A stretch of DNA of 64,000 bases from a virus. Shown one piece after another: positions 1,196-27,386 of the stretch. Position 1 is the first letter of the stretch, and the number at the start of each line of letters is the position of its first letter. The translations under genes were made by a program, and so were the position numbers. The stretch lies in IMG/VR virus record IMGVR_UViG_3300030102_008089, positions 32,001 through 96,000 of that record. The stretch is one strand, 5' to 3'. Below the pieces are notes generated by a model. It searched no databases, was not told the origin of the DNA, and worked only from the letters and a program-made list of their open reading frames with translations.

Positions 1196-1318
1196 ATGAT
1201 TACAAAGACAAAATTTTGGAAAACAATTAAAAAACAACTTAAAGGCATCGAACACTCTAAGAGATTTACCGCAGAAATTATGAAACGTGTCAAGGAGACA
1301 CCCCAAGATGAGAATTAA
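1196..1318 (+). CDS. Small basic hypothetical protein (40 aa, absent from ORF track)
   Basis: Manual translation MITKTKFWKTIKKQLKGIEHSKRFTAEIMKRVKETPQDEN; GGGAG upstream; overlaps next start. Confidence 0.5.
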   Translation: MITKTKFWKTIKKQLKGIEHSKRFTAEIMKRVKETPQDEN

Positions 1319-1508
1319 AATATCAGATCTGCGTAAAATTGTTAGAGAAATGATAAAAGAGGCAGCCGCAGAAGGCAAGATGCAGAAGATATACCGCAAC
1401 TCTTATAAAAAAATGATCAGCAAAGCTTCTACTGGAGGCAACAAGAACACGCCACCATTCACTAAGAAAGCTGCAAAGCCTGGAAAGTCAGGATTGGGTC
1501 CTTTTTGA
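1308..1508 (+). CDS. Hypothetical protein with conserved N-terminal leader
   Basis: Start moved to ATG 1308 giving MRIKISDLRKIVREMIKE, the leader type shared by neighbours. Confidence 0.65.
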   Translation: MRIKISDLRKIVREMIKEAAAEGKMQKIYRNSYKKMISKASTGGNKNTPPFTKKAAKPGKSGLGPF

Positions 1509-1509
1509 G

Positions 1510-2334
1510 ATGGGATCTAATCATAAGTGGAAACAATTTATTAATGAATCCGTTAAAGTATATGTCCACGGATATATAAAACCTTTAGCCGCTTTTCATA
1601 CCCTACAAGAATGGGAAACACTTTTTGTCAATAAAATTTTAAAGTTTCAAGAAGAAGGTAATTACGTTAGTCATGGACATGGTGAGCTTGTAGGACCTCA
1701 AGAACTTTTAGATTTAATAGAAGATTTTTACGGGTTCCAGCTAAATGTTGATGTAGATAGGTATGATTTGCTGACTCAGAAGAATGTACTTGATCATATT
1801 GAAGATTTTGTTAATCATAGATACTGGTCATTAGCTAATGAATTTGGACAATATTTTGACGACATCTCTGACCTTAAGTTTGCTTACTTTTATTCTCGTG
1901 GTGATCTAGAGCCATACGTCTTGGTTGACGAAACTTTTACCGAACAGATATATGGGTCTACTAATAATATTAAGACGCTCTATCATTACACGCACAAAGA
2001 AGGTGTAGACAGAATACAACGTGCCATTGAAAGCGGGGATCCATTTGATATTTCTGCATACACAATGGCAAAGCGAGACTTCTTCCGTCAAAAATCAAAT
2101 CTGATAATGGAGTTTGAGGGGAATGTCAGAGCAGGCTTCCGTAGTGATGTTAAATCTTATTCTGTCAGTAATGGTCGGAAGTGTGTAAATCTACACAGAC
2201 TTGGATACCCTGGCAAAGGAAAAGATAATCTCTGCACTGACTTAGAGAACGATTGCAATGGAGAATTAAAGACTTCCCTGTGGAATGAATTTATTGTAAC
2301 TCCTGTAAAGATTTTAGAAGTTTATGAAAAATGA
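1510..2334 (+). CDS. Hypothetical protein, C-terminal ADP-ribosyltransferase-like fold suspected
   Basis: Leader KWKQFINE; LYHYT motif and distal WNEFIV glutamate. Confidence 0.55.
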   Translation: MGSNHKWKQFINESVKVYVHGYIKPLAAFHTLQEWETLFVNKILKFQEEGNYVSHGHGELVGPQELLDLIEDFYGFQLNVDVDRYDLLTQKNVLDHIEDFVNHRYWSLANEFGQYFDDISDLKFAYFYSRGDLEPYVLVDETFTEQIYGSTNNIKTLYHYTHKEGVDRIQRAIESGDPFDISAYTMAKRDFFRQKSNLIMEFEGNVRAGFRSDVKSYSVSNGRKCVNLHRLGYPGKGKDNLCTDLENDCNGELKTSLWNEFIVTPVKILEVYEK

Positions 2335-3044
2335 GAGACCTGCTCAAGAAAATGATAATGGAAGAAATTATCAGAGGCAGAGCCCTTGACCGCTATGCCA
2401 CTATGGCTAGCAGAGAAACCATAGACGCTATCAAGAATGAAGCAGTCAGGGAAGCCTTCAATACTAATGGCAGGGCTGACTTCGCACTGGACGTTCCAGA
2501 AATTACAGACGATATAGACTACTTGAGAACAATTATTATTAGGCTCCGTGAGGGCGACTATGTTGCTGCTGATGGTTCGTATGAATTTGATTTGGATGCT
2601 GATGACGAACAGCGTAAGACTTCCGACATTTATGTAAACATTACTCTGCCTCCTCGGTATGATGAAGATTATTCTTTTATGTCCCGCTTGGTTGCCGAGT
2701 TGAAGGAGACCTTCCGTCACGAGTTAGAACACAGTTCCCAGAGCACCGAGGAGTTGATGGCTGTACAGCGAGCAGTCCCAGACCGAGAGGTATGGAAAGA
2801 CTTGGAGACAGCGGAGGATTATTACCTTTCTGATGCCGAGGTGAAGGCTCATGTGGCGGGCATCTACAAAAAGGCAAAGAGTTTCCGAAAGCCCGCTACA
2901 AATGTGTTGGAGCGAGTTTTAAATGTTATATATAACACTGGCTTATACTACAATCACGACCCTGCAAAACTTGCAGAGTTGATGGAAAAGATACAAAGCC
3001 GCTGGGCGAACTATTTATTTAAGCGATATCGGAGGGCTAGATAA
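2331..3044 (+). CDS. Zincin-like metallopeptidase domain protein
   Basis: HELEH (HExxH) followed by a downstream E (AEVKAH); leader MRDLLKKMIMEE. Confidence 0.6.
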   Translation: MRDLLKKMIMEEIIRGRALDRYATMASRETIDAIKNEAVREAFNTNGRADFALDVPEITDDIDYLRTIIIRLREGDYVAADGSYEFDLDADDEQRKTSDIYVNITLPPRYDEDYSFMSRLVAELKETFRHELEHSSQSTEELMAVQRAVPDREVWKDLETAEDYYLSDAEVKAHVAGIYKKAKSFRKPATNVLERVLNVIYNTGLYYNHDPAKLAELMEKIQSRWANYLFKRYRRAR

Positions 3045-3910
3045 TGAGCCATAAAATCCTAATGGAAAACTGGAGAAACTTTATTAGTAAGGAAAACTCC
3101 CAAAAGGATGTTTTAAACGAACAAGAAGGTGGGAGCTTTTTTAATCCAGACATCCCACTTAAATTAAGTGATGTTGACCCTGAGAAAGCAAAGAAGGTTG
3201 CTACTTCTGGGCGTAAGGACGGGGATGAGAACGATGACGACATTAAAGCTGACTACAAGCCCGATGGCGTAGCTCCTGTTGGGAAATTAAAACCTTCTCA
3301 ATCTAGTATGAACATTGAAAAAGCCTTGGCTTTTGTTTTGAATATGTTAAATCCAGATCACGAACTGCAAGCTGGCGGTGACCTGGAGGCTTTAATCAGC
3401 AAGGATCGATTTATAATGGACGGACACCATCGATGGATTGCTACAGCAATGATTGACCCTACGCTTAAAGTTGGCGGCTATTTAGTTCAGTTTCCTGCCA
3501 AACAATTAGTGGCTGTTTTAAACACGATGACAAAAGGTCTTTTTGGTCAGATGCAAGGAAATGAAGCCACAGGAGGATTTGAACAATTTAAACCTGGACC
3601 AATGAAAAAGCAGTTAATGCAATATTTAAATGCTGGTGTCTGGCAAATGAAACCAGAGGATGTTACGCAGGTTTTACAGAAATTTACAGGGTCACAGGAA
3701 TCTGGAGAAGGTTTGGTAGATTTAGCCGTGGCTAAAATGGTCTCTAATCTAAAAGGTATCTCACTAGCTGTTCCCTCTTGGGCGGCCGAAAGAGAAGATA
3801 TGCCAGTCATTGATAAACCAAATGTACCAAAAGCGGCAAAAGCTTTGAACACTGGAGAGGTTGATTGGAACCAGCCTTTAGCCGCCAATAGAAAAGAAAA
3901 AAATAAATAA
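3044..3910 (+). CDS. ParB/Srx-like domain protein, paralog 1
   Basis: PSQS...IMDGHHRW motifs; leader LMENWRNFISKE. Confidence 0.7.
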   Translation: MSHKILMENWRNFISKENSQKDVLNEQEGGSFFNPDIPLKLSDVDPEKAKKVATSGRKDGDENDDDIKADYKPDGVAPVGKLKPSQSSMNIEKALAFVLNMLNPDHELQAGGDLEALISKDRFIMDGHHRWIATAMIDPTLKVGGYLVQFPAKQLVAVLNTMTKGLFGQMQGNEATGGFEQFKPGPMKKQLMQYLNAGVWQMKPEDVTQVLQKFTGSQESGEGLVDLAVAKMVSNLKGISLAVPSWAAEREDMPVIDKPNVPKAAKALNTGEVDWNQPLAANRKEKNK

Positions 3911-3921
3911 AGGGATATTTT

Positions 3922-4815
3922 ATGAAACTGTTGATGGAAAATTGGAGAAAGTTTCTTAAGGAAGAGAAAGGTTCAGATCCAGAACAACAAAGAACTTTAA
4001 AAAACCTTTTAAACAAAAAGTATTCTTCTTTTGTGGATGGGCTTGAGAAACAAGTAAAAGATCCAAAGTTTGCTAACTTTTTAAGTATGGGGCTTAAACC
4101 AGATGATGGTGACGGACGAGACGACATCATAGCTGTTAGAAAAACAGCCATTCCCGTTAAGAAGTTACTTCCCACACAAAGTCAGATAGGATTAGCAGAT
4201 TCTCTAGGGTGGATTAGCGAAAACAAGCCACAAGCTGCTGGAGAGTATGCAAAATTAACAGGTGGAAGTGCCGCTGATGTTGGTGGCAGAATTATAACAG
4301 CCAATGGAAAACATATTGTTGATGGACACCACAGGTGGTCACAGGTTTACTTACTAAATCCAGAGGCTAGTATACCAGTTTATGATTTTACTGTATCTGA
4401 TAGTATGCCCGCTGAAGATCGTGGGAAGGCAGCACTCAAATTAGCTCACCTTGCAATTGCTGCTGTTGACAAAGCGGTACCGCTTGTGGCTGCTGATGCC
4501 GCAACCGATATTTATGCAACGCAAGGAGATGAAAACAAAATTAAACAAATATTAAACAAGACCATAAGTGATGAGATGGTAAAATCTTTATCAGATGCTT
4601 ATGGTGTTTCTTCTAGAGATGAGGTGGTAAACAAAGTAACTAATAATGCCTTGTCTCTTTATAAGGGCACTAAGGCTGCCGCAGCCAAAGGACCAGAACG
4701 TGGTGAGATGCCACAAACAGCAGGAACTCCCGATTTTGGAGACACTGACCCTCTAGATAAAATGAAAGCTATGAGGGCAGGTTCTGTTAATTGGAAGACT
4801 CCCTCTGGGGAGTAG
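3922..4815 (+). CDS. ParB/Srx-like domain protein, paralog 2
   Basis: PTQS...IVDGHHRW motifs; leader MKLLMENWRKFLKEE; C-terminus parallels paralog 1 (MP...KA...G.V.W..P). Confidence 0.7.
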   Translation: MKLLMENWRKFLKEEKGSDPEQQRTLKNLLNKKYSSFVDGLEKQVKDPKFANFLSMGLKPDDGDGRDDIIAVRKTAIPVKKLLPTQSQIGLADSLGWISENKPQAAGEYAKLTGGSAADVGGRIITANGKHIVDGHHRWSQVYLLNPEASIPVYDFTVSDSMPAEDRGKAALKLAHLAIAAVDKAVPLVAADAATDIYATQGDENKIKQILNKTISDEMVKSLSDAYGVSSRDEVVNKVTNNALSLYKGTKAAAAKGPERGEMPQTAGTPDFGDTDPLDKMKAMRAGSVNWKTPSGE

Positions 4816-4823
4816 TACTGTCC

Positions 4824-5912
4824 ATGAGACTCATAATGGAAAATTGGCGCAAGTTCCTAAAGGAAGGCATCAGCCCAGTCGTGTATCACTACACCAGTGG
4901 TCTTGATAAATCCCAAAAGATCCTAGAAGAAAATCGTTTCCTTACCTCTGGTGCTTATACTAAGGGTGAAGTTGAAACTCGATTTGGTAAAGGTAAACTT
5001 TATTATTTTTCTACCGCAAGAACGCCAATGGGAGCATACACTGGAACATATCCTCAAGGAGCTATCTTTAAATTGGACGGACGAGCTTTGGCTCAGAAAT
5101 ACAAAGGAGCCCCTGTTGATTACTATGGTTCCGCAGAACGGGGCTCATCTAAAAAAGCAGCGGGTGGCTACTTTGGCGAAGAGGGATTTGAGGCAGAAGA
5201 TAGAATTATAACTAATGAGCCGTATATCGAAGACGCCGACAGATATATTGATGAGATACATTTTGCTATTCCTTTGTATAGATTTACACAAGATTTTATG
5301 GAGACCAAGCCAACTAGAAAGCCTGGAAGCGCCATAGAAGGATATGTAATGGAAGGACTTGAAAAAGGCGTTGCTATAGCGGAGCAAAGAAACATTCCTT
5401 ACTATATCCACATTGATAAAACAACTTGGCCGAATGTTGAGGTTGGAAAAAAGAAAGCACTTACTAGTCTGTCTCAATTTATGGAAGAAGTAGAAAAGGC
5501 TGGTGTCGAAGTTCGTGAGCGACCTGATATGTCTGGTGTGACTCAAAGAGAGGGCAGATCTACAAGAGAGGATGAAGTGTTCAGATACTATGTCGTGGCT
5601 AAGAGTATTCTTGCTGGCGATAAAGAACTTGATGTATCGGAAATTAAGGGTCGTAGTCGTTATTCTCCAGAGGAGATGCGTAGAGAAAATGCTCAGAAGA
5701 TTTTTAAGAAGATCACTACTGGTGACCCTGATCCGACTGGTCGATATCATCCGCAAATTAATAACGCACTTCACAGTGTTGGCAGAGAACCACAGAGTCG
5801 TGAAACTTTGGAACTTTTATCTTCTTTGTTCCGCCAAACAAAACAATCGACGCTAAAAGGTTTTGAGAACTATTTAAGAAAGGTTTATGAAAAAAATCAT
5901 GGGGACCAATAA
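4824..5912 (+). CDS. Hypothetical protein, N-terminal ADP-ribosyltransferase-like fold suspected
   Basis: Start moved to ATG 4824 (MRLIMENWRKFLKEG); YHYT, YFST and EAED motifs. Confidence 0.55.
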   Translation: MRLIMENWRKFLKEGISPVVYHYTSGLDKSQKILEENRFLTSGAYTKGEVETRFGKGKLYYFSTARTPMGAYTGTYPQGAIFKLDGRALAQKYKGAPVDYYGSAERGSSKKAAGGYFGEEGFEAEDRIITNEPYIEDADRYIDEIHFAIPLYRFTQDFMETKPTRKPGSAIEGYVMEGLEKGVAIAEQRNIPYYIHIDKTTWPNVEVGKKKALTSLSQFMEEVEKAGVEVRERPDMSGVTQREGRSTREDEVFRYYVVAKSILAGDKELDVSEIKGRSRYSPEEMRRENAQKIFKKITTGDPDPTGRYHPQINNALHSVGREPQSRETLELLSSLFRQTKQSTLKGFENYLRKVYEKNHGDQ

Positions 5913-6212
5913 ATGAAAATTACAAAAACCTTATTGAGAAAGATTATCAAAGAGGAAATCCTCAAAGAATACGGCATGGAGCAAGACTTCGAAAAGGGTA
6001 TGAGAGTTACTTTTAATAAATTAGAGAAAGTAATTAAGACAACTGCTAGCGGAAAACAAAAAGTAGATTATGTTAGAATGCCTATGGAAGGTATCATTGT
6101 CGCAGAGCCTATGATAGACAGAACTTCTGCTGAACCAGGCTACGCTGAAGTAAAAGTAGATGGTGAACCAGATACCATAACAATTAGAATAGCCGAACTC
6201 AGACCAGCGTAA
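5913..6212 (+). CDS. Hypothetical protein with leader and small beta-rich (SH3/KOW-like) domain
   Basis: MKITKTLLRKIIKEE leader; GMRVTF..GIIV..AEVKV..ITIRIAEL pattern. Confidence 0.6.
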   Translation: MKITKTLLRKIIKEEILKEYGMEQDFEKGMRVTFNKLEKVIKTTASGKQKVDYVRMPMEGIIVAEPMIDRTSAEPGYAEVKVDGEPDTITIRIAELRPA

Positions 6213-6240: not shown

Positions 6241-7434
6241 ATGAGTATTTTTCGTGAACACAAGACAATTGCCGATCGAGCAGCCAGCGACAGAAGCCGC
6301 CATAGGCAAAAGATTGAAAAAGCAATAAAAGAAAGTATTCGGGACGTTGTTGCCGAGGAAAGTATTATTGGACAAAGCGGAAAAAAGAAAATAAGAATAC
6401 CTGTCAAGGGAATAAAAGAACATCGTCTTGTGTATGGATCAAATGAAAATAATAAACAAGTGGGTTCAGCCCAAGGTAAAGATATTACCAAAGGGCAAAG
6501 AATAGGACACAGAAGAAGAACCAAACCTCAACAAGGAAAAGAAGACAAGCCTGGAGACAAACCAGGGGAAGAAATGTATGAGATAGAGATGTCGCTAGAA
6601 GAGCTAGCAGGATACCTCTTTAATGACCTAGAACTACCAGAACTAGAGAAGAAAAATTTTAAATTTACAACCCAGGAAAAGTTTAAAAGAAAAGGCAAAA
6701 GACCATATGGTATCCGACCACGCCTATCAAAAAAAGAAACCATAAAACAAAAGATCAAAAGAAAAAAAGCAGCTATTAAAGCTGGAACTTATAACCCTGA
6801 AGAGGATGACAGATTTTCTTTTCACGAAAGCGATCTTAGGTACAAGCACATAGCGCCCGTCCAGAAAGAAAACACTGCCGCTGTTGTTTTCTTTGTAATG
6901 GATGTCTCTGGGTCTATGACCAAATCTAAGAAATTTTTAGCTCGTAGTTTTTTCTTTCTTTTATATCAATTTTTAAACCATAAATATTCTTCAGTTGATG
7001 TTGTTTTCATATCTCACACGGCAGATGCTCACGAAGTAAATGAAGAACAGTTTTTCACTCAGGTCCCAAACGGTGGAACTTTAGTATCTACAGGACTTAA
7101 AAAAACTGAGGAAATTATTGAAAAACGTTATCATCCGAATAACTGGAATATTTACACGTTTTATTGCGGCGATGGAGATAACTGGAGTATTGATAACAAA
7201 GAAGCGTTAGCTGCCTTCAGAAGACTAAAAGAAATTAATCAACTAATGTGTTATACGGAAATTGGAAGACTTGTTGATTACAGAGAGTATAGTTTGTTTG
7301 CGGGCGGAACAGTAGAGAAAAAACTATGGGACTGGACAAAACTCGTAGAGGATAAAATGTTTAAAAGAGTACGCCTAGAAGAACACTCTGATATATGGCC
7401 TTCTTTCAAAAAATTGTTTGGAGGGAAAAACTAA
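6241..7434 (+). CDS. yeaH: YeaH/YhbH (DUF444) vWA-like protein
   Basis: DRSRHRQKI, ESII, VMDVSGSM, FFTQVPNGGT, YCGDGDNW motifs; neighbours spoVR and prkA. Confidence 0.9.
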   Translation: MSIFREHKTIADRAASDRSRHRQKIEKAIKESIRDVVAEESIIGQSGKKKIRIPVKGIKEHRLVYGSNENNKQVGSAQGKDITKGQRIGHRRRTKPQQGKEDKPGDKPGEEMYEIEMSLEELAGYLFNDLELPELEKKNFKFTTQEKFKRKGKRPYGIRPRLSKKETIKQKIKRKKAAIKAGTYNPEEDDRFSFHESDLRYKHIAPVQKENTAAVVFFVMDVSGSMTKSKKFLARSFFFLLYQFLNHKYSSVDVVFISHTADAHEVNEEQFFTQVPNGGTLVSTGLKKTEEIIEKRYHPNNWNIYTFYCGDGDNWSIDNKEALAAFRRLKEINQLMCYTEIGRLVDYREYSLFAGGTVEKKLWDWTKLVEDKMFKRVRLEEHSDIWPSFKKLFGGKN

Positions 7435-8750
7435 TGCCTGATTGGTCTTTAAGTGAGTTGCAAGAATGGGATGAAAAAATATGTTCTCTGGGAGAAGCTT
7501 TAAACCTTGACTGGTATCCTATCGAGTATGAAATTTGTGACTACAAAGAAATGATTGGACATATGGCTTACACTGGGTTACCTACCCATTACCGTCACTG
7601 GTCTTTTGGCAAATCTTTTGATAGAATACAGACAGAATATAATCTTGGAATGTCTGGGCTTCCTTATGAGATGATCATAAATTCAAATCCTAGTATCTCA
7701 TATTTAATGACAGAAAACCCAATGCCAACACACATATTAACAATGGCTCACTGTGTGGGTCACTCTGATTTTTTCAAGAACAACAGGATGTTTTCTGAGA
7801 CTGGCGCTGACACCGTTATTGATAGTTTCAAGGCGTCAGGAAGAAGAGTTAAGAAATATATTGAAGACCCAAATATAGGAATTGAAAAGGTAGAAAGAAT
7901 TCTAGATGCTTGCCATGCAATTAGATTTCAAGTTCCTAGAACCCCTGGTGTTAAAAGAAGAAACCATAAACAACTTAAAAAGTATTATCAGGAATTAATC
8001 AGACAAGATGTCACTGGCTGGTGGGCGACTCATTTTAATATTAACAAAATACCTTTGGAGCCAGATTGTAATTTGCTTGGCTTTATCGCAACTCACAGTA
8101 ATCTAGAGGAATGGGAAAAAGATTTAGTCTCTATTGTTGAAAAAGAATCAAAGTATTTTGTACCACAAGCGTATACAAAAATAATGAATGAAGGCTGGGC
8201 TTGTTTAATTCACGAAAAAATAATTCAAGCACTTAATCTGCCCGATGACTATTATTTATCTTTTATACGTCTTCATAACCAAGTTGTTCGACCTCATCTC
8301 GGAAGGATTAATCCTTACCATCTTGGGTACAAAATCTTCAGACACATTGAGGATAACTTGGGGTTTGAAGAGTGTCTAAGAGCAAGAGAGACACACAATG
8401 ACGAAACGTTTATTAAACATTACCTAACTCAAGAGTTGTGCGAAGAGCTTAATTTGTTTAGTTTTTCTTTTCACAGGAGGGATGGCTATAATCGCATTAC
8501 AGAAATTTCATCCGAAGAAACGTGGAGAACTGTTCGTGACGACCTAATTAAGAATGTAGGGCTTAATGGCGTTCCTGTGGTTTTAGTTAAAGAATTGAAA
8601 AAAGATGGTACTTTAATTCTAGAACATGAACACGACGGTAGAGACTTAGAGCTTTCGCAAGCTAATAAAGTCTTTGAACACATTAACGACCTATGGAGCG
8701 GTGATATAAGATTTACAACAGTTATCGAAGACGAGGCTTGGGAGTTTTAA
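7434..8750 (+). CDS. spoVR: SpoVR/YcgB family protein
   Basis: GLPTHYRHWSFGK, GLPYEMIINSNP, HCVGHSDFFKNN, TKIMNEGWA, NPYHLG; start moved to ATG 7434 (TAATG coupling). Confidence 0.93.
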   Translation: MPDWSLSELQEWDEKICSLGEALNLDWYPIEYEICDYKEMIGHMAYTGLPTHYRHWSFGKSFDRIQTEYNLGMSGLPYEMIINSNPSISYLMTENPMPTHILTMAHCVGHSDFFKNNRMFSETGADTVIDSFKASGRRVKKYIEDPNIGIEKVERILDACHAIRFQVPRTPGVKRRNHKQLKKYYQELIRQDVTGWWATHFNINKIPLEPDCNLLGFIATHSNLEEWEKDLVSIVEKESKYFVPQAYTKIMNEGWACLIHEKIIQALNLPDDYYLSFIRLHNQVVRPHLGRINPYHLGYKIFRHIEDNLGFEECLRARETHNDETFIKHYLTQELCEELNLFSFSFHRRDGYNRITEISSEETWRTVRDDLIKNVGLNGVPVVLVKELKKDGTLILEHEHDGRDLELSQANKVFEHINDLWSGDIRFTTVIEDEAWEF

Positions 8751-8751
8751 A

Positions 8752-10692
8752 ATGGCAAACAAAAAATCTGATCGTTTTCTCAAGTTAATTGGAAAACACA
8801 ACGAAAAGAAAAAGAAAGAAAAATTTAGTGGTTCTTTTGAGGATTATTTAAGGATCCTAGAGAATGACACAACTATTACAAAATTAGCCCACAAAAGACT
8901 ATACGATTCAATAGTTGAAAGTGGTATAACAAAATTGAGCCAAACAGATGAAAGATGCAACAAGCTTTTTGGTGGCGAAGAATTAAGAACCTATGATTAT
9001 TTCCAAGACAAGTTTTTTGGAATGGAAAGATCTTTAGCAAAGATTATGCGTTTCTTGCGGTCTGCATCGCTTAAGGGCGAAGAGAGCCGTCAGGTTCTTT
9101 TATTGTTGGGTCCTGTTGGTGCTGGCAAGTCTGCACTTATGGAGCACATCAAAAGATCACTAGAAGACTCAGAACCAATGTATCATCTTGATGGGTGCCC
9201 AATTAACGAGGAGCCACTACACCTAATTCCTAGATCACTAAGGTCCGACTTTGAAAAACTATACGGCATTAAAATTGAGGGTGATTTATGTCCTGTCTGT
9301 CGCTATAGATTGAAAGAAGAATTTAATAATGACTATTTAAAGTTTCCTGTAGCTCAGTCTTCTTTTTCTGTACGAGGACGCCGTGGTGTTGGAGTTGTTC
9401 CTCCAATGGATGCAAATAGTCAAGATGTGACTGTTTTAGTCGGCAGCGAAGACATTTCAAAACTTGACCTTTATTCTGAAGATGATCCAAGAGTTCTGTC
9501 TTTAAATGGTGCCTTTAATGTCGGCAATAGAGGTATAGTTGAATTTGTAGAAGTGTTTAAAAATGAGATTGAATTTTTGCACACGATGATTACCGCAACA
9601 CAGGAAAAAGCCGTACCATCACCAGGTAAAGGTCCAATGATTTATTTTGATGGGGTAATTTTAGCTCATTGTAACGAAGCTGAATGGAACAAGTTTAAAT
9701 CTGAAAACACAAACGAAGCTATCTTAGACAGAATTGTAAGAGTTAATGTTCCTTATTGTCTAGAAGTATCTGAGGAAGTTAAAATATATAACAAAATGTT
9801 GGGACTCTCTGACTTTGATGGACACATAGCGCCACACACTCTTGAGGTTGCTGCAATGTTTGCAGTGTTAAGTCGCCTGCACCCCTCTAATAAAGTTGAT
9901 GCTTTGACCAAGATGAAACTATATGATGGACAAGATGTTATAGAAAGAGGGTCTGTTAAAAAAATAGACATAAATGATCTTAGAGACGAAGCAAGAGACG
10001 AAGGGATGACAGGAATTTCAACCCGCTTCATAATGAAGGCTATTGATAGTGCCTTATCAGATAGTGAAAAAAATATGGTAACTCCAATTTCAATAAGGGA
10101 TTCATTAATAAAGCAAGTTAAGGATCAAATAGTTGTAGAAGATGATAGGAACAGGTACCTAGACTTTCTAGGAAAGACCTTGCACGATGAATATCTAAAC
10201 ATTCTTGAGAAAGAAATTACAAAAGCCTTTGTCTCTGCTTATGACGAACAGGCGGAGTCGCTTTTCAACAATTATCTTGACCACGCCGAAGCATATGTCA
10301 ATATGACAAATGTAAAAGACTCAGTAACTAACGAAGAGATAGCTCCCGATGAAAAATTTATGCTCTCTATTGAAGAACAAATAGGAATTACGGGTACAGC
10401 AAGAGAAAACTTTAGAGTTGACATAACAGCGTTTATGTTTTCTAAACTCAGAAGAGGTGAGACTGTAGACTGGAAATCATATGCCCCACTAAAAGAAGCT
10501 ATTGAGAGCAAGTTAACCTCTTCTGTTAAGCAAATTTCTAGAATTGTAACAAAATCTAAGAGCAGAGATAAGAAACAACAAGGAAAGTATAACGAAATGT
10601 TACAGACTCTGATTGATGAGTACGGATATAATGAGGAATCAGCAGAGGAAGTAATCAAGTTTGCCTCTAATAATCTCTGGAGAGACAGTTAG
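8752..10692 (+). CDS. prkA: PrkA/YeaG AAA+ protein
   Basis: LLLLGPVGAGKS Walker A, CPINEEPL, LCPVC, NRGIVEFVEVFK, GISTRF. Confidence 0.95.
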   Translation: MANKKSDRFLKLIGKHNEKKKKEKFSGSFEDYLRILENDTTITKLAHKRLYDSIVESGITKLSQTDERCNKLFGGEELRTYDYFQDKFFGMERSLAKIMRFLRSASLKGEESRQVLLLLGPVGAGKSALMEHIKRSLEDSEPMYHLDGCPINEEPLHLIPRSLRSDFEKLYGIKIEGDLCPVCRYRLKEEFNNDYLKFPVAQSSFSVRGRRGVGVVPPMDANSQDVTVLVGSEDISKLDLYSEDDPRVLSLNGAFNVGNRGIVEFVEVFKNEIEFLHTMITATQEKAVPSPGKGPMIYFDGVILAHCNEAEWNKFKSENTNEAILDRIVRVNVPYCLEVSEEVKIYNKMLGLSDFDGHIAPHTLEVAAMFAVLSRLHPSNKVDALTKMKLYDGQDVIERGSVKKIDINDLRDEARDEGMTGISTRFIMKAIDSALSDSEKNMVTPISIRDSLIKQVKDQIVVEDDRNRYLDFLGKTLHDEYLNILEKEITKAFVSAYDEQAESLFNNYLDHAEAYVNMTNVKDSVTNEEIAPDEKFMLSIEEQIGITGTARENFRVDITAFMFSKLRRGETVDWKSYAPLKEAIESKLTSSVKQISRIVTKSKSRDKKQQGKYNEMLQTLIDEYGYNEESAEEVIKFASNNLWRDS

Positions 10693-14550: not shown

Positions 14551-14625
14551 GCGGGTGTAACTCAGTGGTAGAGTGTCTCGTTGCCAACGAGAATGTCGTG
14601 GGTTCGAATCCCATCACCCGCTCCA
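14551..14625 (+). tRNA. tRNA-Gly(GCC)
   Basis: GCGGGTG/CACCCGC acceptor, TCTCG-TTGCCAA-CGAGA anticodon arm, GTTCGAATC, U73, encoded CCA. Confidence 0.97.
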
Positions 14626-14627
14626 AT

Positions 14628-14702
14628 AGGAACGTAGCTCAGTGGTAGAGCGTCTGGTTTACACCCAGGATGTCGTAGGTTCGATCCCTACCGTTCCTAC
14701 CA
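14628..14702 (+). tRNA. tRNA-Val(TAC)
   Basis: AGGAACG/CGTTCCT acceptor, loop TTTACAC, GTTCGATC, encoded CCA. Confidence 0.95.
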
Positions 14703-14707
14703 AATAT

Positions 14708-14784
<77 letters not shown>

Positions 14785-14805
14785 ATGCTGTCAAGTGGAG
14801 GAAAT

Positions 14806-15306
14806 ATGACACCAGAACAAAAATTTACACAACTCTACAAACAAATGTGGGATCTTTGTCAGGAAAACAATTGGGGAGACCCTTTCTCGTATGCCCGAGC
14901 AAAAGAAATTTATGCAACCTGTGCGCTAGGACATAAAATGCCTGGTCCCAATGTTTTTGCTGGTGCTGATGGTATCAACGAAAAAGGACAACCAGTTGAG
15001 TACAAGTCAACCACTGGTAAAAAATGTCAAGGATCTTATACTGGAATCTCTGTTCAGAAAGACTGGAAGCAGCAGGAAAAATATCTTGTTACTGAAAAAA
15101 TTGCGAAATACCCTGAGCATTTTTATAATCGATTTGAGGATGGAGTACTTGCTGAGAGTTGGAAAATGTCTGGAAAGAAAGTTTTAGATATTCTTCTTCC
15201 TAAGTTGGCAAAGAAATTTAACACAGTTAAAAGTCAAAAAGATCCTCGGCTTGCTGCTACAGTAACTTGGTCGGAAATTAAAGAACACGGTGAACAAGTG
15301 ATTTAG
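14806..15306 (+). CDS. Putative PD-(D/E)xK restriction-endonuclease-like protein
   Basis: GADG....VEYKS motif; adjacent to a DNA methyltransferase; start moved to ATG 14806 (GGAGG SD), outside tRNA-Arg. Confidence 0.55.
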   Translation: MTPEQKFTQLYKQMWDLCQENNWGDPFSYARAKEIYATCALGHKMPGPNVFAGADGINEKGQPVEYKSTTGKKCQGSYTGISVQKDWKQQEKYLVTEKIAKYPEHFYNRFEDGVLAESWKMSGKKVLDILLPKLAKKFNTVKSQKDPRLAATVTWSEIKEHGEQVI

Positions 15307-15338
15307 TCTATGGTAAAATCTCACAAGTTGGAGGTTTG

Positions 15339-15884
15339 ATGAATAAAGATTTAGACAGTAAAAAATTAATGTATTCTAAGGGCAATAACGACGAATGTTA
15401 TACGCCCGATTATGGTGTTGAGCCTATTCTAGAATTTATTCCCGAGGATGCAATTGTTTGGTGTCCATTTGATGATGAATCCAGCGAGTTTGTAAAGCAA
15501 ATCTCAAAACAAAATATTGTTGTACATTCTCATATTAAAGATGGAAAAGATTTTTTTGAGTACGAGCCCGAAAAATGGGATGTAATTATTTCTAATCCAC
15601 CGTTTACAAATAAGCGAAAGTTTTTTGAAAGAGCCTTGTCTTTTGGAAAACCGTTTGCTTTGATTATGACTAATACTTGGCTCAATGATTCAGCACCTAA
15701 GCAGCTATTCAAAGAAAAAGACTTACAACTTTTAATGTTTGATAAACGTATGAAGTTTATTTCCCCAGATGGACGAGATAATAATAAGATTACTTTTAGC
15801 AGTAGTTATTATTGTTGGAACTTCCTGCCCAAACAAATTATTATGAAAGAATTAAATGTTAAGGGTTCTCGGAAAAATTCCTAG
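15339..15884 (+). CDS. Amino-group (N6-adenine/N4-cytosine) DNA methyltransferase
   Basis: DECYTP, WCPFD, DVIISNPPF catalytic motif IV. Confidence 0.8.
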   Translation: MNKDLDSKKLMYSKGNNDECYTPDYGVEPILEFIPEDAIVWCPFDDESSEFVKQISKQNIVVHSHIKDGKDFFEYEPEKWDVIISNPPFTNKRKFFERALSFGKPFALIMTNTWLNDSAPKQLFKEKDLQLLMFDKRMKFISPDGRDNNKITFSSSYYCWNFLPKQIIMKELNVKGSRKNS

Positions 15885-16461
15885 AGAGGTCATTGTCGCT
15901 GTCAGCGGCGGACCAGACTCTATGGCTATCTTAGATTTCCTCAGTAATAATCATAAGGTTACTGCTGCCTACTTTGATCACGGCACTCAGTTTGGAGAAG
16001 ATTGTAAATATTTCGTAAAAGACTTTTGCGAAGAGCGGGATATTGACTTGGTTGTAGGTAATATTTATTTTGATTGTCCGCCCGAAAAGTCAACAGAAGA
16101 ACATTGGCGTGATGAGCGTTATAGATTCTTCCGTACCTTTAATGATCAGATTGTTACAGGACACAATTTAGACGATGTGATTGAGTGGTTTTTATTCTCT
16201 TCTTTACACGGACACGGGAAAGTTATGCCCTATAAGAACGGAAACGTTATTAGACCGTTTATCTCCACCTCTAAGCGTTCTCTAGAAGATTGGTGCGAGC
16301 GTAAGGATGTTCCGTTTATGGTTGACCCAGGGAACAAAGATAGAAAGTTTATGAGAAGCATTATCAGAAACGATATGATGCCTCATGCTCGCAAGGTAAA
16401 CAAAGGCATCGAAAAAACATTTAAAAAAATGGTTGAAAGGGATTATAATCTTTTATATTAA
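15856..16461 (+). CDS. tilS: Minimal tRNA(Ile)-lysidine synthase (PP-loop domain only)
   Basis: VAVSGGPDS PP-loop, FDHG, RDERYRFF, TGHNLDD, RPF, RSIIR; 201 aa. Confidence 0.85.
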   Translation: MLRVLGKIPREVIVAVSGGPDSMAILDFLSNNHKVTAAYFDHGTQFGEDCKYFVKDFCEERDIDLVVGNIYFDCPPEKSTEEHWRDERYRFFRTFNDQIVTGHNLDDVIEWFLFSSLHGHGKVMPYKNGNVIRPFISTSKRSLEDWCERKDVPFMVDPGNKDRKFMRSIIRNDMMPHARKVNKGIEKTFKKMVERDYNLLY

Positions 16462-16538
16462 GGGGGATTAGCTCAATTGGTTAGAGCATCCGACTCATAA
16501 TCGGGAGGTTCAGAGTTCAAGTCTCTGGTCCCCTACCA
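16462..16538 (+). tRNA. tRNA(CAT), probably Ile2 (lysidine-modified)
   Basis: TCCGA-CTCATAA-TCGGG arm with C29:G41; lacks initiator features; A73; starts at the base after the tilS stop. Confidence 0.85.
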
Positions 16539-16539
16539 A

Positions 16540-16615
16540 GCCCGAATAGCTCAATTGGCAGAGCAGTGGTTTTGTAAACCAAAGGTTGCAGGTTCGATTC
16601 CTGCTTTGGGCACCA
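16540..16615 (+). tRNA. tRNA-Thr(TGT)
   Basis: GCCCGAA/TTTGGGC acceptor, loop TTTGTAA, encoded CCA. Confidence 0.95.
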
Positions 16616-16618
16616 TAA

Positions 16619-16693
<75 letters not shown>

Positions 16694-16694
16694 C

Positions 16695-16782
16695 GGAAGA
16701 GTGTCCGAGTGGTCGATGGTGAGGCACTAGAAATGCCTTGTGCAGAGATGCACCGTGGGTTCGAATCCCACCTCTTCCTCCA
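16695..16782 (+). tRNA. tRNA-Ser(AGA), class II, U73
   Basis: GGAAGAG/CTCTTCC acceptor, AGGCA-CTAGAAA-TGCCT arm, long variable arm GTGCA-GAGA-TGCAC, encoded CCA. Confidence 0.88.
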
Positions 16783-23748: not shown

Positions 23749-23919
23749 ATGGCTAGCCCAAGAGTTAGAAGACTAAGAAAAGCTGCAAGAGCCGCTGCAA
23801 GAGCCGCATCCCAAGCACCCGCTCAAATTGTTGCACCACAGGTTGAAGACAAACCTAAAAAGGCTGCACCTAAAGCGACAAAAAAAGTGAAAAAGTCAAG
23901 TGCTAAAAAAGCTGACTAA
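23749..23919 (+). CDS. Small Lys/Arg/Ala-rich basic protein (56 aa, absent from ORF track)
   Basis: AAGGAGG SD; MASPRVRRLRKAARAAARAASQAPAQIVAPQVEDKPKKAAPKATKKVKKSSAKKAD. Confidence 0.8.
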   Translation: MASPRVRRLRKAARAAARAASQAPAQIVAPQVEDKPKKAAPKATKKVKKSSAKKAD

Positions 23920-24139
23920 AAAATTTATCCTTAATGAAGCATTTAAGGTAGATGCTGGGGCTTCAGTCCAGGCTCTATACGATATTGTTTCAAATATTAG
24001 AGTTACAAATAAAAGAGATACCAATAGAATTTCCTTGGCAAAAGAACATATTCGTGGTATAAAAAGACACCTAAGATCCTTAAACGAAAGAATTGATTCA
24101 CTTGAAGAAGAGTTAAAAATACTGACAGAGGACAAGTAA
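23900..24139 (+). CDS. Hypothetical coiled-coil protein with leader-like FILNE
   Basis: GTG start; heptad-like C-terminus. Confidence 0.6.
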   Translation: MLKKLTKKFILNEAFKVDAGASVQALYDIVSNIRVTNKRDTNRISLAKEHIRGIKRHLRSLNERIDSLEEELKILTEDK

Positions 24140-26118: not shown

Positions 26119-26916
26119 ATGAATCTTAAGCGTGATCAAATTATTGCGGAAGAACTCATTAGAGAACATATCCGTAAAAGAATTAAAAATCGTCTAAATG
26201 AACAAATTATTGCAGAACAGAATATAAGAACTTATGTTAGAAGACTTTTAGAAACGGAAGCAGGAACAGTAGAGCCCAGCCGCAGCACTGGTATTAATGT
26301 TCTAGCAGATCTTTTAGAGAAAATAGTCCCTGTAATTGAAGATGATTATAAGATGCTTACCTCCTCGAAGGAGCAAAGAGAATCTTTTAAAAATCATATT
26401 GTTCACGCCATCAAAAACTCTTTAAATCCAATTGATGCAGCTAGCAAAGCTGAGAGACAAGTAGAAAACACTGTATTTGAAATTGATGCTAATACGCTTT
26501 TAGAGAAACTATCAATTGATTTAGACCCTCAAGATGATGGCAAAGAAGAACAATCAGTTGAAGGCGAATTTATAGATATTGACGGTGACGGTGAATCAGA
26601 TGACGATTTTGTCACTCTTGATGATCAAAATGAAACAGGACGCAACTTTGCTTCAGTTACTTATAAAAAAGTAGAAAAACAAATTGTAGATGCTTACGAT
26701 ATGTTAGCGGACGAAGAAGACGAAAGGTTGTTCTACGATTACTTGATTACAAATATGTTGTTGTACTTCGATAAATTTGAAGATGAACTACAAAATCAAT
26801 TACCTGACATCTCTACTCCAGAATATGAAAAAGAAAAAGAAGAAGCCGCCACTGAAGAAGAGCCTGCTGCTGAAGAAGAACCAAGCGCAGAAGATTCAGA
26901 AGATTTAAGTTTGTAA
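26119..26916 (+). CDS. Hypothetical acidic protein, possible head/core component
   Basis: Start moved to ATG 26119; repeated I/L-x-E motifs in the N-terminus; very acidic C-terminus. Confidence 0.7.
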   Translation: MNLKRDQIIAEELIREHIRKRIKNRLNEQIIAEQNIRTYVRRLLETEAGTVEPSRSTGINVLADLLEKIVPVIEDDYKMLTSSKEQRESFKNHIVHAIKNSLNPIDAASKAERQVENTVFEIDANTLLEKLSIDLDPQDDGKEEQSVEGEFIDIDGDGESDDDFVTLDDQNETGRNFASVTYKKVEKQIVDAYDMLADEEDERLFYDYLITNMLLYFDKFEDELQNQLPDISTPEYEKEKEEAATEEEPAAEEEPSAEDSEDLSL

Positions 26917-27061: not shown

Positions 27062-27386
27062 GGGGGTAAACGGTATCGATTGATGGGAAAGTAGAAAAGG
27101 TGCAAGGGTGAGGGAAGCGTGGCTCACGAAAAACGCTTAAAACTTTAATCGCCAATGACGATTTCGAAATGGAGATGGCAGCTTAAAAACCTGACCTCCC
27201 ATGAGGCGACGGCAGCCGATAAACAGAAAGCCGTATTTGGGTGTCTTAAGTGCTTTTGATTGTTATAGCCGCAATAAAACGATCTAGTCAAGCGGGCTGT
27301 CTGACGATAAAAACAGACCTAACCTTGTGAATGACCCTTCTATGGAACTAGACAAGACGGGAGTTCGATTCTCCCTACCTCCACCA
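27062..27386 (+). ncRNA. ssrA: tmRNA, tag (A)ANDDFEMEMAA
   Basis: GGGGGTA/TACCTCC acceptor with G3:U70, A73, CCA; T-arm GGGAG-TTCGATT-CTCCC; tag frame 27151-27186 ending in Ala-Ala-stop. Confidence 0.95.

Follow-up and report, generated by a model that had tools for sequence, protein, structure and literature searches.

A shared N-terminal leader on unrelated proteins of an uncultured marine T4-like phage is probably a capsid-targeting propeptide

The 64,000-nucleotide stretch analysed here (the window) comprises bases 32001-96000 of the 127,433-bp viral contig IMGVR_UViG_3300030102_008089, whose source is an uncultured marine T4-like phage; at window positions 1308-6212 it carries seven consecutive genes with products that are largely unrelated to one another and yet start with similar short leaders. 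We propose that this shared N-terminus is probably a capsid-targeting propeptide of the T4 type and that, by analogy, it most likely loads the proteins bearing it into the phage head for injection. The same inference had been drawn in a first-pass annotation of the bare sequence, and every part of it that is accessible to sequence analysis came out in its favour. Capsid targeting as a concept is well known from T-even phages; the novelty lies in the two 14-residue leader classes, in the scale on which they are used and in their distribution across an uncultured marine clade that extends to a cultured Flavobacterium phage. Positions below are those of the window, except that genome positions follow the numbering of the contig.

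All seven open reading frames (ORFs) are present on the plus strand and open with the leaders originally read from them (Table 1). The picture of one cassette with one leader was real, but too narrow: the system is genome-wide and clade-wide, and the leaders fall into two classes. When the strict motif [LIMFWYV]xx[FIMLV][ILVM]xE was scored in the first 21 residues of the 150 ORFs of the contig, it was found 24 times in 21 of them, against 4.3 occurrences expected from its internal rate (Poisson P 4e-11). Two position-specific matrices (PSSMs), built from the leaders of this contig and its relatives, gave 20 matches in the contig but not a single one in a reversed-sequence control; 19 of the 20 immediately follow a start codon, and the Glu of the leader falls at residue 13-15 of this contig's leader proteins. 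Of the seven leaders in the window, six score above the PSSM threshold, at 19-49. ORF3 (window 2331), like the gene at genome 116888, has a degenerate leader that is recovered by the strict motif only, and the ORF3 paralogue at genome 122310 has the canonical class B leader MKLIMENWRGFLQE. Outside the window, a single leader gene is found at genome 7297 and a further 12 form an array at genome 117499-126360. Two sites that had been listed as having similar ends, at 23900 and 26119, do show a loose likeness to the leaders (that at 26119 recalls MNLKDHLIELINE in the leader array of a fragmentary relative, G004), but both stay under the PSSM threshold and their membership is doubtful; the 26119-26916 product could be a core-like protein.

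Both classes run for 14 residues to the Glu. Class A (MKITKSQLKQIIKE; M-K-I-T-K-S/T-Q/E-L-K-Q-I-I-K-E(-E)) ends in I-K-E and class B (MKLLMENWRKFLNE; M-K-L-L/I-M-E-N-W-R-K-F-L-x-E) ends in L-x-E, with an additional L-M-E upstream that gives it two potential (L/I)-x-E sites. As judged from the sequence, the hydrophobic positions 1, 4/5, 8, 11 and 12 of both classes would fall on a single face of an alpha-helix. The AlphaFold model of ORF6 depicts the tag as a detached helix spanning residues 2-14, with a predicted local distance difference test score (pLDDT) below 50 for residues 1-12, and its confident domain begins at residue 19.

Synonymous codons vary freely at the conserved residues, with as many as five Leu codons at position 8 of class A and four Arg codons at position 9 of class B, and the DNA upstream of the leader genes differs from gene to gene, which together indicate that the constraint acts on the peptide. 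The same two observations speak against the idea that the proteins owe their common start to past duplication, or to an element in the nucleotide sequence that serves translation initiation or regulation, and that it has no function as a peptide. The tandem arrangement of the genes would suit such an origin, as would the Lys at position 2 (AAA/AAG), which is common after start codons; however, no kinship among the payloads is seen past residue 14-16, W8, F11 and E14 are kept in an ORF6 family whose members are as little as 28% identical, and the tag is also found in Flavobacterium phage immuto, whose protease and gp6 are 48% and 30% identical, respectively, to those of the clade. We therefore give this explanation hardly any credence.

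Two claims of the first-pass annotation, that the payloads are mutually unrelated and that the leader is a modular address tag, are well borne out. Once the leaders had been stripped from 21 contig proteins, BLASTP paired only the products of 3044-3910 and 3922-4815 and those of 2331 and genome 122310, the remaining match (genome 124551 with 125049) arising where nested ORFs overlap. In IMG/VR, searches guided by proteins or by the leader pattern recovered well over 100 contigs with leaders, the pattern scan giving at least 120 stretches. Among the matches listed, there are at least 371 distinct leader ORFs on this contig and related ones; the 344 that are complete form 225 payload clusters (BLASTP E 1e-5), three of which bear either leader class. 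An alignment of 148 cluster representatives has a mean column identity of 3%, with M1, K2 and E14 alone nearly invariant. Only about 13 of these 148 have a Pfam match, so that over 90% are left without one, and the names include NUDIX, Zeta_toxin, GNAT, PGDYG, M23, LRV, C5 DNA methylase, 2H phosphoesterase and HD.

Modularity is also visible on a single type of enzyme. An NT5C/HAD-type nucleotidase is tagged in the relatives G1 and G3 and in immuto, and its homologue at genome 118132-118794, inside the leader array, has no leader (29% identity, E 5e-30); the similarity begins immediately past the tag. At the sequence level, this is evidence that the tag has been gained or lost on one and the same payload. 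Two further ORFs, at genome 124551-125468 and at G1 106766-107824, combine a canonical leader at the start with a second one in frame after a Met, namely MRVTKSELQQIIKEE in the former (residue 167) and MKVTKAQLQEIILEE in the latter (residue 229); each is either two genes fused without a stop codon or a polyprotein with tandem cargo for the protease to cut.

T4 removes its capsid-targeting peptides with the prohead protease gp21, and the first-pass annotation had suggested looking for such a protease elsewhere in the genome. The contig is linear and 59% complete according to the IMG/VR metadata, and thus a fragment of a phage genome; a profile search found no homologue of gp21 or of the capsid protein gp23 on it, and the fragment has no head module. 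We therefore turn to relatives: three complete genomes with terminal repeats (191-203 kb) and the fragmentary G004 (172 kb). All three complete relatives and G004 encode both a gp21-family protease (PF03420, E 1e-29 to 1e-34) and a gp23 homologue (PF07068, E ~1e-60). The protease is homologous to the gp21 of 2,619 T4-like phage records, with 48% identity to that of immuto, about 40% to those of cyanomyoviruses and 33% to those of T-even phages. G004 is the closest of the relatives examined, and in it the M50 protease gene is followed by the leader array and then by the genes for terminase, portal, protease, scaffold and capsid. Our contig ends in the same combination of M50 gene and array, which makes it probable that the head module it lacks is situated immediately beyond its 3' end.

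The leader motif recurs at this head module. In G3, a 265-aa gene near the protease gene starts with MQIKKSRLRQIIKEE followed by MKKSDLKKVLKPIIKE; in G1, an acidic 182-aa protein encoded between portal and protease starts with MKLLLEHWNRYLQEE, and TWRTFLNE occurs within a 356-aa protein encoded after the protease. The arrangement in immuto is comparable, as a 73-aa gene upstream of the protease starts with MKKSQIVKAVQE, a 75-aa gene with KWQAKFLKE follows directly after it and four further leader genes lie 10-20 kb upstream. Over record positions 102250-125424 of immuto 3-5A, diverged leaders of both classes are found on at least eight genes (e.g. MKKSQLRQIIKE, MKKSELVKLIKEE, MENFDLKKFLVE and MENNFDIHKWQAKFLKE), of which one is annotated as a 5' nucleotidase and the remainder as hypothetical; the PSSM found no leader in the 50-kb replication and nucleotide-metabolism region of this phage. 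In the capsid alignment, the RB3 gp23 site SFLTE/A stands in register with LLKE/Q, LLRE/N, LLRE/A and IVSE/A. The Glu at which T4-type gp23 matures (E65) is invariant in the relatives and is preceded by L-x, or by V-x in immuto. RB3 gp67, gp68, gp21, gp22 and gp24 likewise have hydrophobic-x-E motifs at their start. Going by these alignments, the cleavage specificity looks to have been retained in the relatives.

The contig has other genes whose products could handle a peptide tag. GroEL (genome 10611-12197, upstream of the window) is present in all five genomes tested. A ClpP-family protease is encoded at genome 15854-16456, likewise upstream of the window, and is absent from G003; its PHROGs label, 'head maturation protease', is probably misleading here, and we rejected the gene as the prohead protease in view of its non-structural neighbours and its match to Pfam CLP_protease. 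A full-length Peptidase_M50 gene (site-2 protease family, Pfam E 2.6e-59) lies at genome 123614-124417, within the second leader array; it occupies the same place in G004 and is absent from the three complete relatives. No PHROG matches the 633-aa ORF that comes after the leader gene at genome 7297, and this ORF is neither the portal nor the terminase known from the relatives.

One could imagine that the helix serves in docking to, or regulation by, another partner, be it the chaperonin, the ClpP-like or M50 protease or a host factor, in which case it would govern the folding, localisation or timed degradation of phage proteins in the cytoplasm. The occurrence of GroEL on this contig and in 4/4 relatives tested, the presence here of the ClpP-like gene and of the M50 gene amid leaders, and the fact that several payloads are ordinary metabolic enzymes would all agree with such a role, but we consider it improbable. 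Leaders occur without M50 in 3/3 complete relatives and ClpP is missing from the complete relative G003, and on these grounds of co-occurrence we rejected both as the processing enzyme; chaperonins are not known to recognise specific N-terminal tags. Another partner would also leave unexplained why the tag is found on head-core proteins adjoining the gp21 homologue and why tag and capsid maturation site share the (L/I)-x-E end.

The payloads of the cassette had been read at first pass as ADP-ribosyltransferase (ART)-like, ParB/Srx and zincin enzymes, and these assignments fared differently. Sequence searches of the seven window proteins in Pfam, PHROGs and PDB gave almost no match: the ParB-like pair reached phrog_2859, and whatever else appeared was noise below the threshold. 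The ART-like assignment is upheld by fold comparison for ORF6, whose model has a mean pLDDT of 82. With an exhaustive structure aligner its best match is Tpt1 (7yw4; Z 9.8, root-mean-square deviation 3.0, 113 residues aligned), followed by DarT (Z 8.3 to 7.0 for 7yk3, 7omv, 7omu and 8baq), with about 25 ART toxins next in order; a Foldseek search of ORF6 against PDB returned no match at E <=0.001. The family is common in marine metagenomes (86 hits), and E14, H22, Y60, S63, R66, E123 and E125 are invariant in its alignment, with W8 and F11 nearly so. ORF6 itself has no Pfam match, and its distant homologue P0086 matches Pfam ART-PolyVal. On the strength of the model, we assign the N-terminal ~200 residues of ORF6 to the ART fold. 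The ORF2 cargo has neighbours near the ART clan in a protein atlas, which is a lead only; its orthologue in G004 starts with MKKLMDRWRVFINE.

The ParB/Srx assignment is plausible for the paralogous products of 3044-3910 and 3922-4815, in which DGHHRW is invariant. The seven best fold matches of the 3922-4815 core domain are all ParB/Srx, but at Z 3.9-4.9, on a model with a mean pLDDT of 65 and low confidence over residues 1-68, and Pfam has no match; a profile search with the ParB-like protein reached 1vk1 and SerK through DGHHRW alone (E 0.12). For ORF3, the possibility of a zincin has the HExxH motif, conserved in both paralogues (HELEH in ORF3, HEIQH at genome 122310), as its sole basis: Pfam and PDB sequence searches found nothing zincin-like, the one sub-threshold Pfam match being Ribonuc_2-5A (E 0.017). 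Its protein-atlas neighbours, SprT-like and LPD23 (the nearest named cluster), have scores of 0.84-0.86 and are again a lead only. Of the smaller proteins, the 52-aa cargo of ORF1 is basic (isoelectric point, pI, 10.3) and resembles the small basic internal proteins of T4. Beyond the window, the class A leader protein of genome 119752-120618 has the run KKKKRKKKKKKKGGKK directly after the tag and a mature pI of 10.2, and is a candidate for a DNA-associated internal protein.

Such cargo also bears on whether the leaders act in assembly only, with the tagged proteins being auxiliary components of the scaffold or core. True core-position genes do bear the tag, many cargos are small, acidic and of low complexity (e.g. 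genome 7297, 125470 and 126097, pI 4.4-4.8), and in T4 the core proteins are cut to fragments that leave the head (PMC9026906, PMC5694885). As scaffold, however, a folded enzyme placed right after the tag would be pointless, and such enzymes comprise the ART fold at Z 9.8, the ParB/Srx-like proteins, NUDIX, a Zeta-toxin-like kinase, GNAT, M23 and C5 methylase. There is precedent, too, in Alt and the internal proteins of T4, tagged enzymes that are retained in the head and injected (PMC9026906). As a general account we find a pure assembly role more improbable still than a cytoplasmic partner, although it may well hold for the small acidic subset.

If the leader is a capsid-targeting propeptide, as we favour, the events could be pictured as follows. 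Each tagged protein would be made with a 14-residue amphipathic helix that ends in Glu14; during prohead assembly this helix would dock the protein on the scaffolding core, whose own proteins bear the same helix. After closure of the gp23-like shell, the gp21-family serine protease would cut after (F/I/L)-(I/L)-x-Glu, whereupon the leader peptide would exit and the mature protein would remain in the head with the DNA, to enter the cell at the next infection before any phage gene is expressed. The cargo delivered from the window would then comprise the ART-fold enzyme and the HExxH protein, the pair of ParB/Srx-like paralogues, one small basic protein and two further products without an assigned family. 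The ART-fold cargo of ORF6 would be functionally comparable to T4 Alt, itself an ART-fold enzyme. The tag, its strict N-terminal position, its conservation as a peptide and its modularity are direct observations, and the sequences of the relatives place it on head-core genes beside the gp21 homologue and conserve the capsid Glu; cleavage, packaging, docking, ejection and the action of the cargo are what the analogy with T4 would predict.

Several points weigh against this account. The gp21 and capsid genes are not on this contig, and the link to them runs through relatives that are 30-60% identical. The likeness to the T4 tag spans about 10 residues, too few for a test of homology, and 20 or more cargo species per genome far exceed what T4 carries. 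Some tagged payloads (NUDIX, 5'-nucleotidase, GNAT) would fit ordinary cytoplasmic enzymes, GroEL is found in all relatives too, so that co-occurrence does not single out the protease, and an upstream motif of the cassette, ACTAYTTA, is common to tail genes and is only suggestive as to timing.

On the plus strand of the contig this motif occurs in 16 copies, those at window positions 1166, 3010, 5869 and 6226 among them, and on the minus strand in 6. Many genes, among them leader genes, yeaH and two tail genes, have it 12-150 nt ahead of their start. On weak grounds it may be a phage promoter element, but because so many classes of gene share it, the timing of expression cannot be inferred from it. 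The T4 late promoter TATAAATA is not enriched in the contig (6 copies on the plus and 6 on the minus strand), and none stands ahead of the leader genes.

Table 1. Leader genes and related features of the window
Position (strand)	Feature	Leader, start or motif	Cargo or remark	PSSM score
1166..1173 (+)	Upstream motif	ACTACTTA	Copy of ACTAYTTA	
1308..1508 (+)	ORF1	Class A-like, MRIKISDLRKIVRE, possibly extended to MIKE		19.1
1510..2334 (+)	ORF2	Class B-like, MGSNHKWKQFINE	261 aa, no assigned family	19.7
2331..3044 (+)	ORF3	Degenerate, MRDLLKKMIMEE	Contains HELEH (HExxH)	
3044..3910 (+)	ORF	Class B with one-residue insertion, MSHKILMENWRNFISKE	ParB/Srx-like; phrog_2859	28.9
3922..4815 (+)	ORF	Canonical class B, MKLLMENWRKFLKE	ParB/Srx-like; paralogue of 3044-3910	48.9
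4824..5912 (+)	ORF6	Canonical class B, MRLIMENWRKFLKE	Predicted ART-fold domain (~8-210), then helical C-terminal domain	43.0
5913..6212 (+)	ORF7	Canonical class A, MKITKTLLRKIIKE	85 aa, acidic	34.2
23900..24139 (+)	ORF, 79 aa	Loosely leader-like, LKKLTKKFILNE		Below threshold
26119..26916 (+)	ORF, 265 aa	MNLKRDQIIAEE	Several (I/L)-x-E sites, very acidic tail	Below threshold

The contig has 39.6% G+C, lacks a terminal repeat and carries 135 of its 150 ORFs on one strand. Judged by gp6, the cultured phages that come closest to it are Microcystis phage Mel-JY01 and Flavobacterium phage immuto (~30% identity); at the DNA level no cultured phage is close, as a megablast comparison of the first 20 kb with cultured phages turned up tRNA genes only. 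An intact yeaH (DUF444)-spoVR-prkA trio (6241-10692) lies directly 3' of the cassette. Seven tRNA genes in two clusters and a transfer-messenger RNA gene, with the tag peptide ANDDFEMEMAA, occupy 14551-16782 and 27062-27386, and the window also holds a long block of sugar enzymes and a tail/baseplate module, one product of which is a gp6-like wedge protein.

Searches made with the leaders themselves located no further cultured phage. A tblastn search of cultured phages with leaders of 20-21 residues gave nothing usable, which is no proof of absence, since the diverged leaders of immuto escaped it as well; a BLAST word search that used 4-10 kb stretches with leader-type start codons found no cultured phage, a search with the whole ParB-like protein found two uncultured records only, and full-text literature searches for leader strings found no paper.

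Capsid-borne proteins act ahead of phage gene expression, and those of T4 include inhibitors of host restriction and an ART that modifies RNA polymerase; normally they are found only through virion proteomics of cultured phages. Should the tag described here work as that of T4 does, candidates for injected proteins could be picked out of metagenomes directly by a 14-residue motif, which would provide a concrete list of candidates for the discovery of anti-defence functions in marine phages, as well as a natural second and third targeting peptide for the packaging of foreign proteins. The fact that Flavobacterium phage immuto bears the same leaders makes the idea testable at the bench now. It is tempting to go further and to speculate, though we would not expect it to hold in full, that a large and abundant clade of uncultured marine T4-like phages, with the cultured Immutovirus at its edge, uses a two-class 14-residue code to load the capsid with hundreds of protein families that are unrelated and for the most part beyond annotation, that classes A and B route their cargo to different core partners and that the double-leader ORFs are polyproteins cut in the head. 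Such routing would let the classes set copy number or order of ejection, and the tag would, on an address-code reading, serve as a sequence-only marker for injected proteins in environmental phage data.

The closest known system is the capsid-targeting sequence of T4, a short N-terminal peptide that is carried by the unrelated proteins IPI, IPII, IPIII and Alt, ends in (L/I)-x-Glu, as the leaders do, and is removed by gp21, which cleaves after L/I-x-E (PMC9026906). The first 10 residues of IPIII are enough for incorporation into the head, and experiments assign targeting to residues 4 and 7 and processing to residues 8 and 10 (PMC9026906, PMC8442874); it has been proposed that the tag is a means by which evolution adds proteins to the capsid (PMC9026906). 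When the T4 tag, MKTYQEFIAE (PMC8442874), is set against the stretch MENWRKFLKE of class B, the two agree at position 4 (aromatic; W4), position 7 (F7), position 8 (Ile/Leu; L8) and position 10 (E10); at the equivalents of IPIII residues 4 and 7, class B has W and F, and class A has L and I. The likeness extends to the head module, as the relatives have a gp21-family protease and gp23, and the motif is also found at head-core proteins and at the capsid maturation site. The internal proteins of T-even phages are diverse, counter host defences and have only the tag in common (PMC3012670), and they vary even among close relatives (PMC4122927). Unlike the 10-residue tag of T4, however, the leaders described here have 14 residues and form two distinct and well-conserved classes; T4 has a handful of tagged genes, whereas about 20 are found here in 59% of one genome, and the more than 200 payload clusters across the clade, known here from sequence alone, are mostly without a Pfam match.

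In the giant phages phiKZ, 201phi2-1 and SPN3US, propeptides of ejection and inner-body proteins are cut by diverged homologues of gp21 (PMC5694885, PMC9026906). As proposed here, many head-internal proteins are cut C-terminal to a Glu, and the identical N-termini of paralogues are thought to act in targeting (PMC5694885, PMC9026906). Their motif is S/A-x-E, in contrast, and their propeptides are not uniform and mostly exceed 100 residues (PMC5694885), whereas in the phages described here the tag is uniform, has 14 residues with hydrophobic ones ahead of the Glu, and goes together with a T4-like head module.

A third comparison is offered by the polyvalent proteins of phages and conjugative elements (Pfam ART-PolyVal and LPD domains), to which the ART-PolyVal match of the distant ORF6 homologue and, as a lead only, the proximity of ORF3 to LPD23 would point. 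Polyvalent proteins have been proposed to travel with the DNA to act against host defences, and they are giant multi-domain fusions. Here, comparable domains are instead encoded by separate genes, each with its own tag, and the double-leader ORFs at genome 124551 and G1 106766 might represent a step from this arrangement towards a processed polyprotein.

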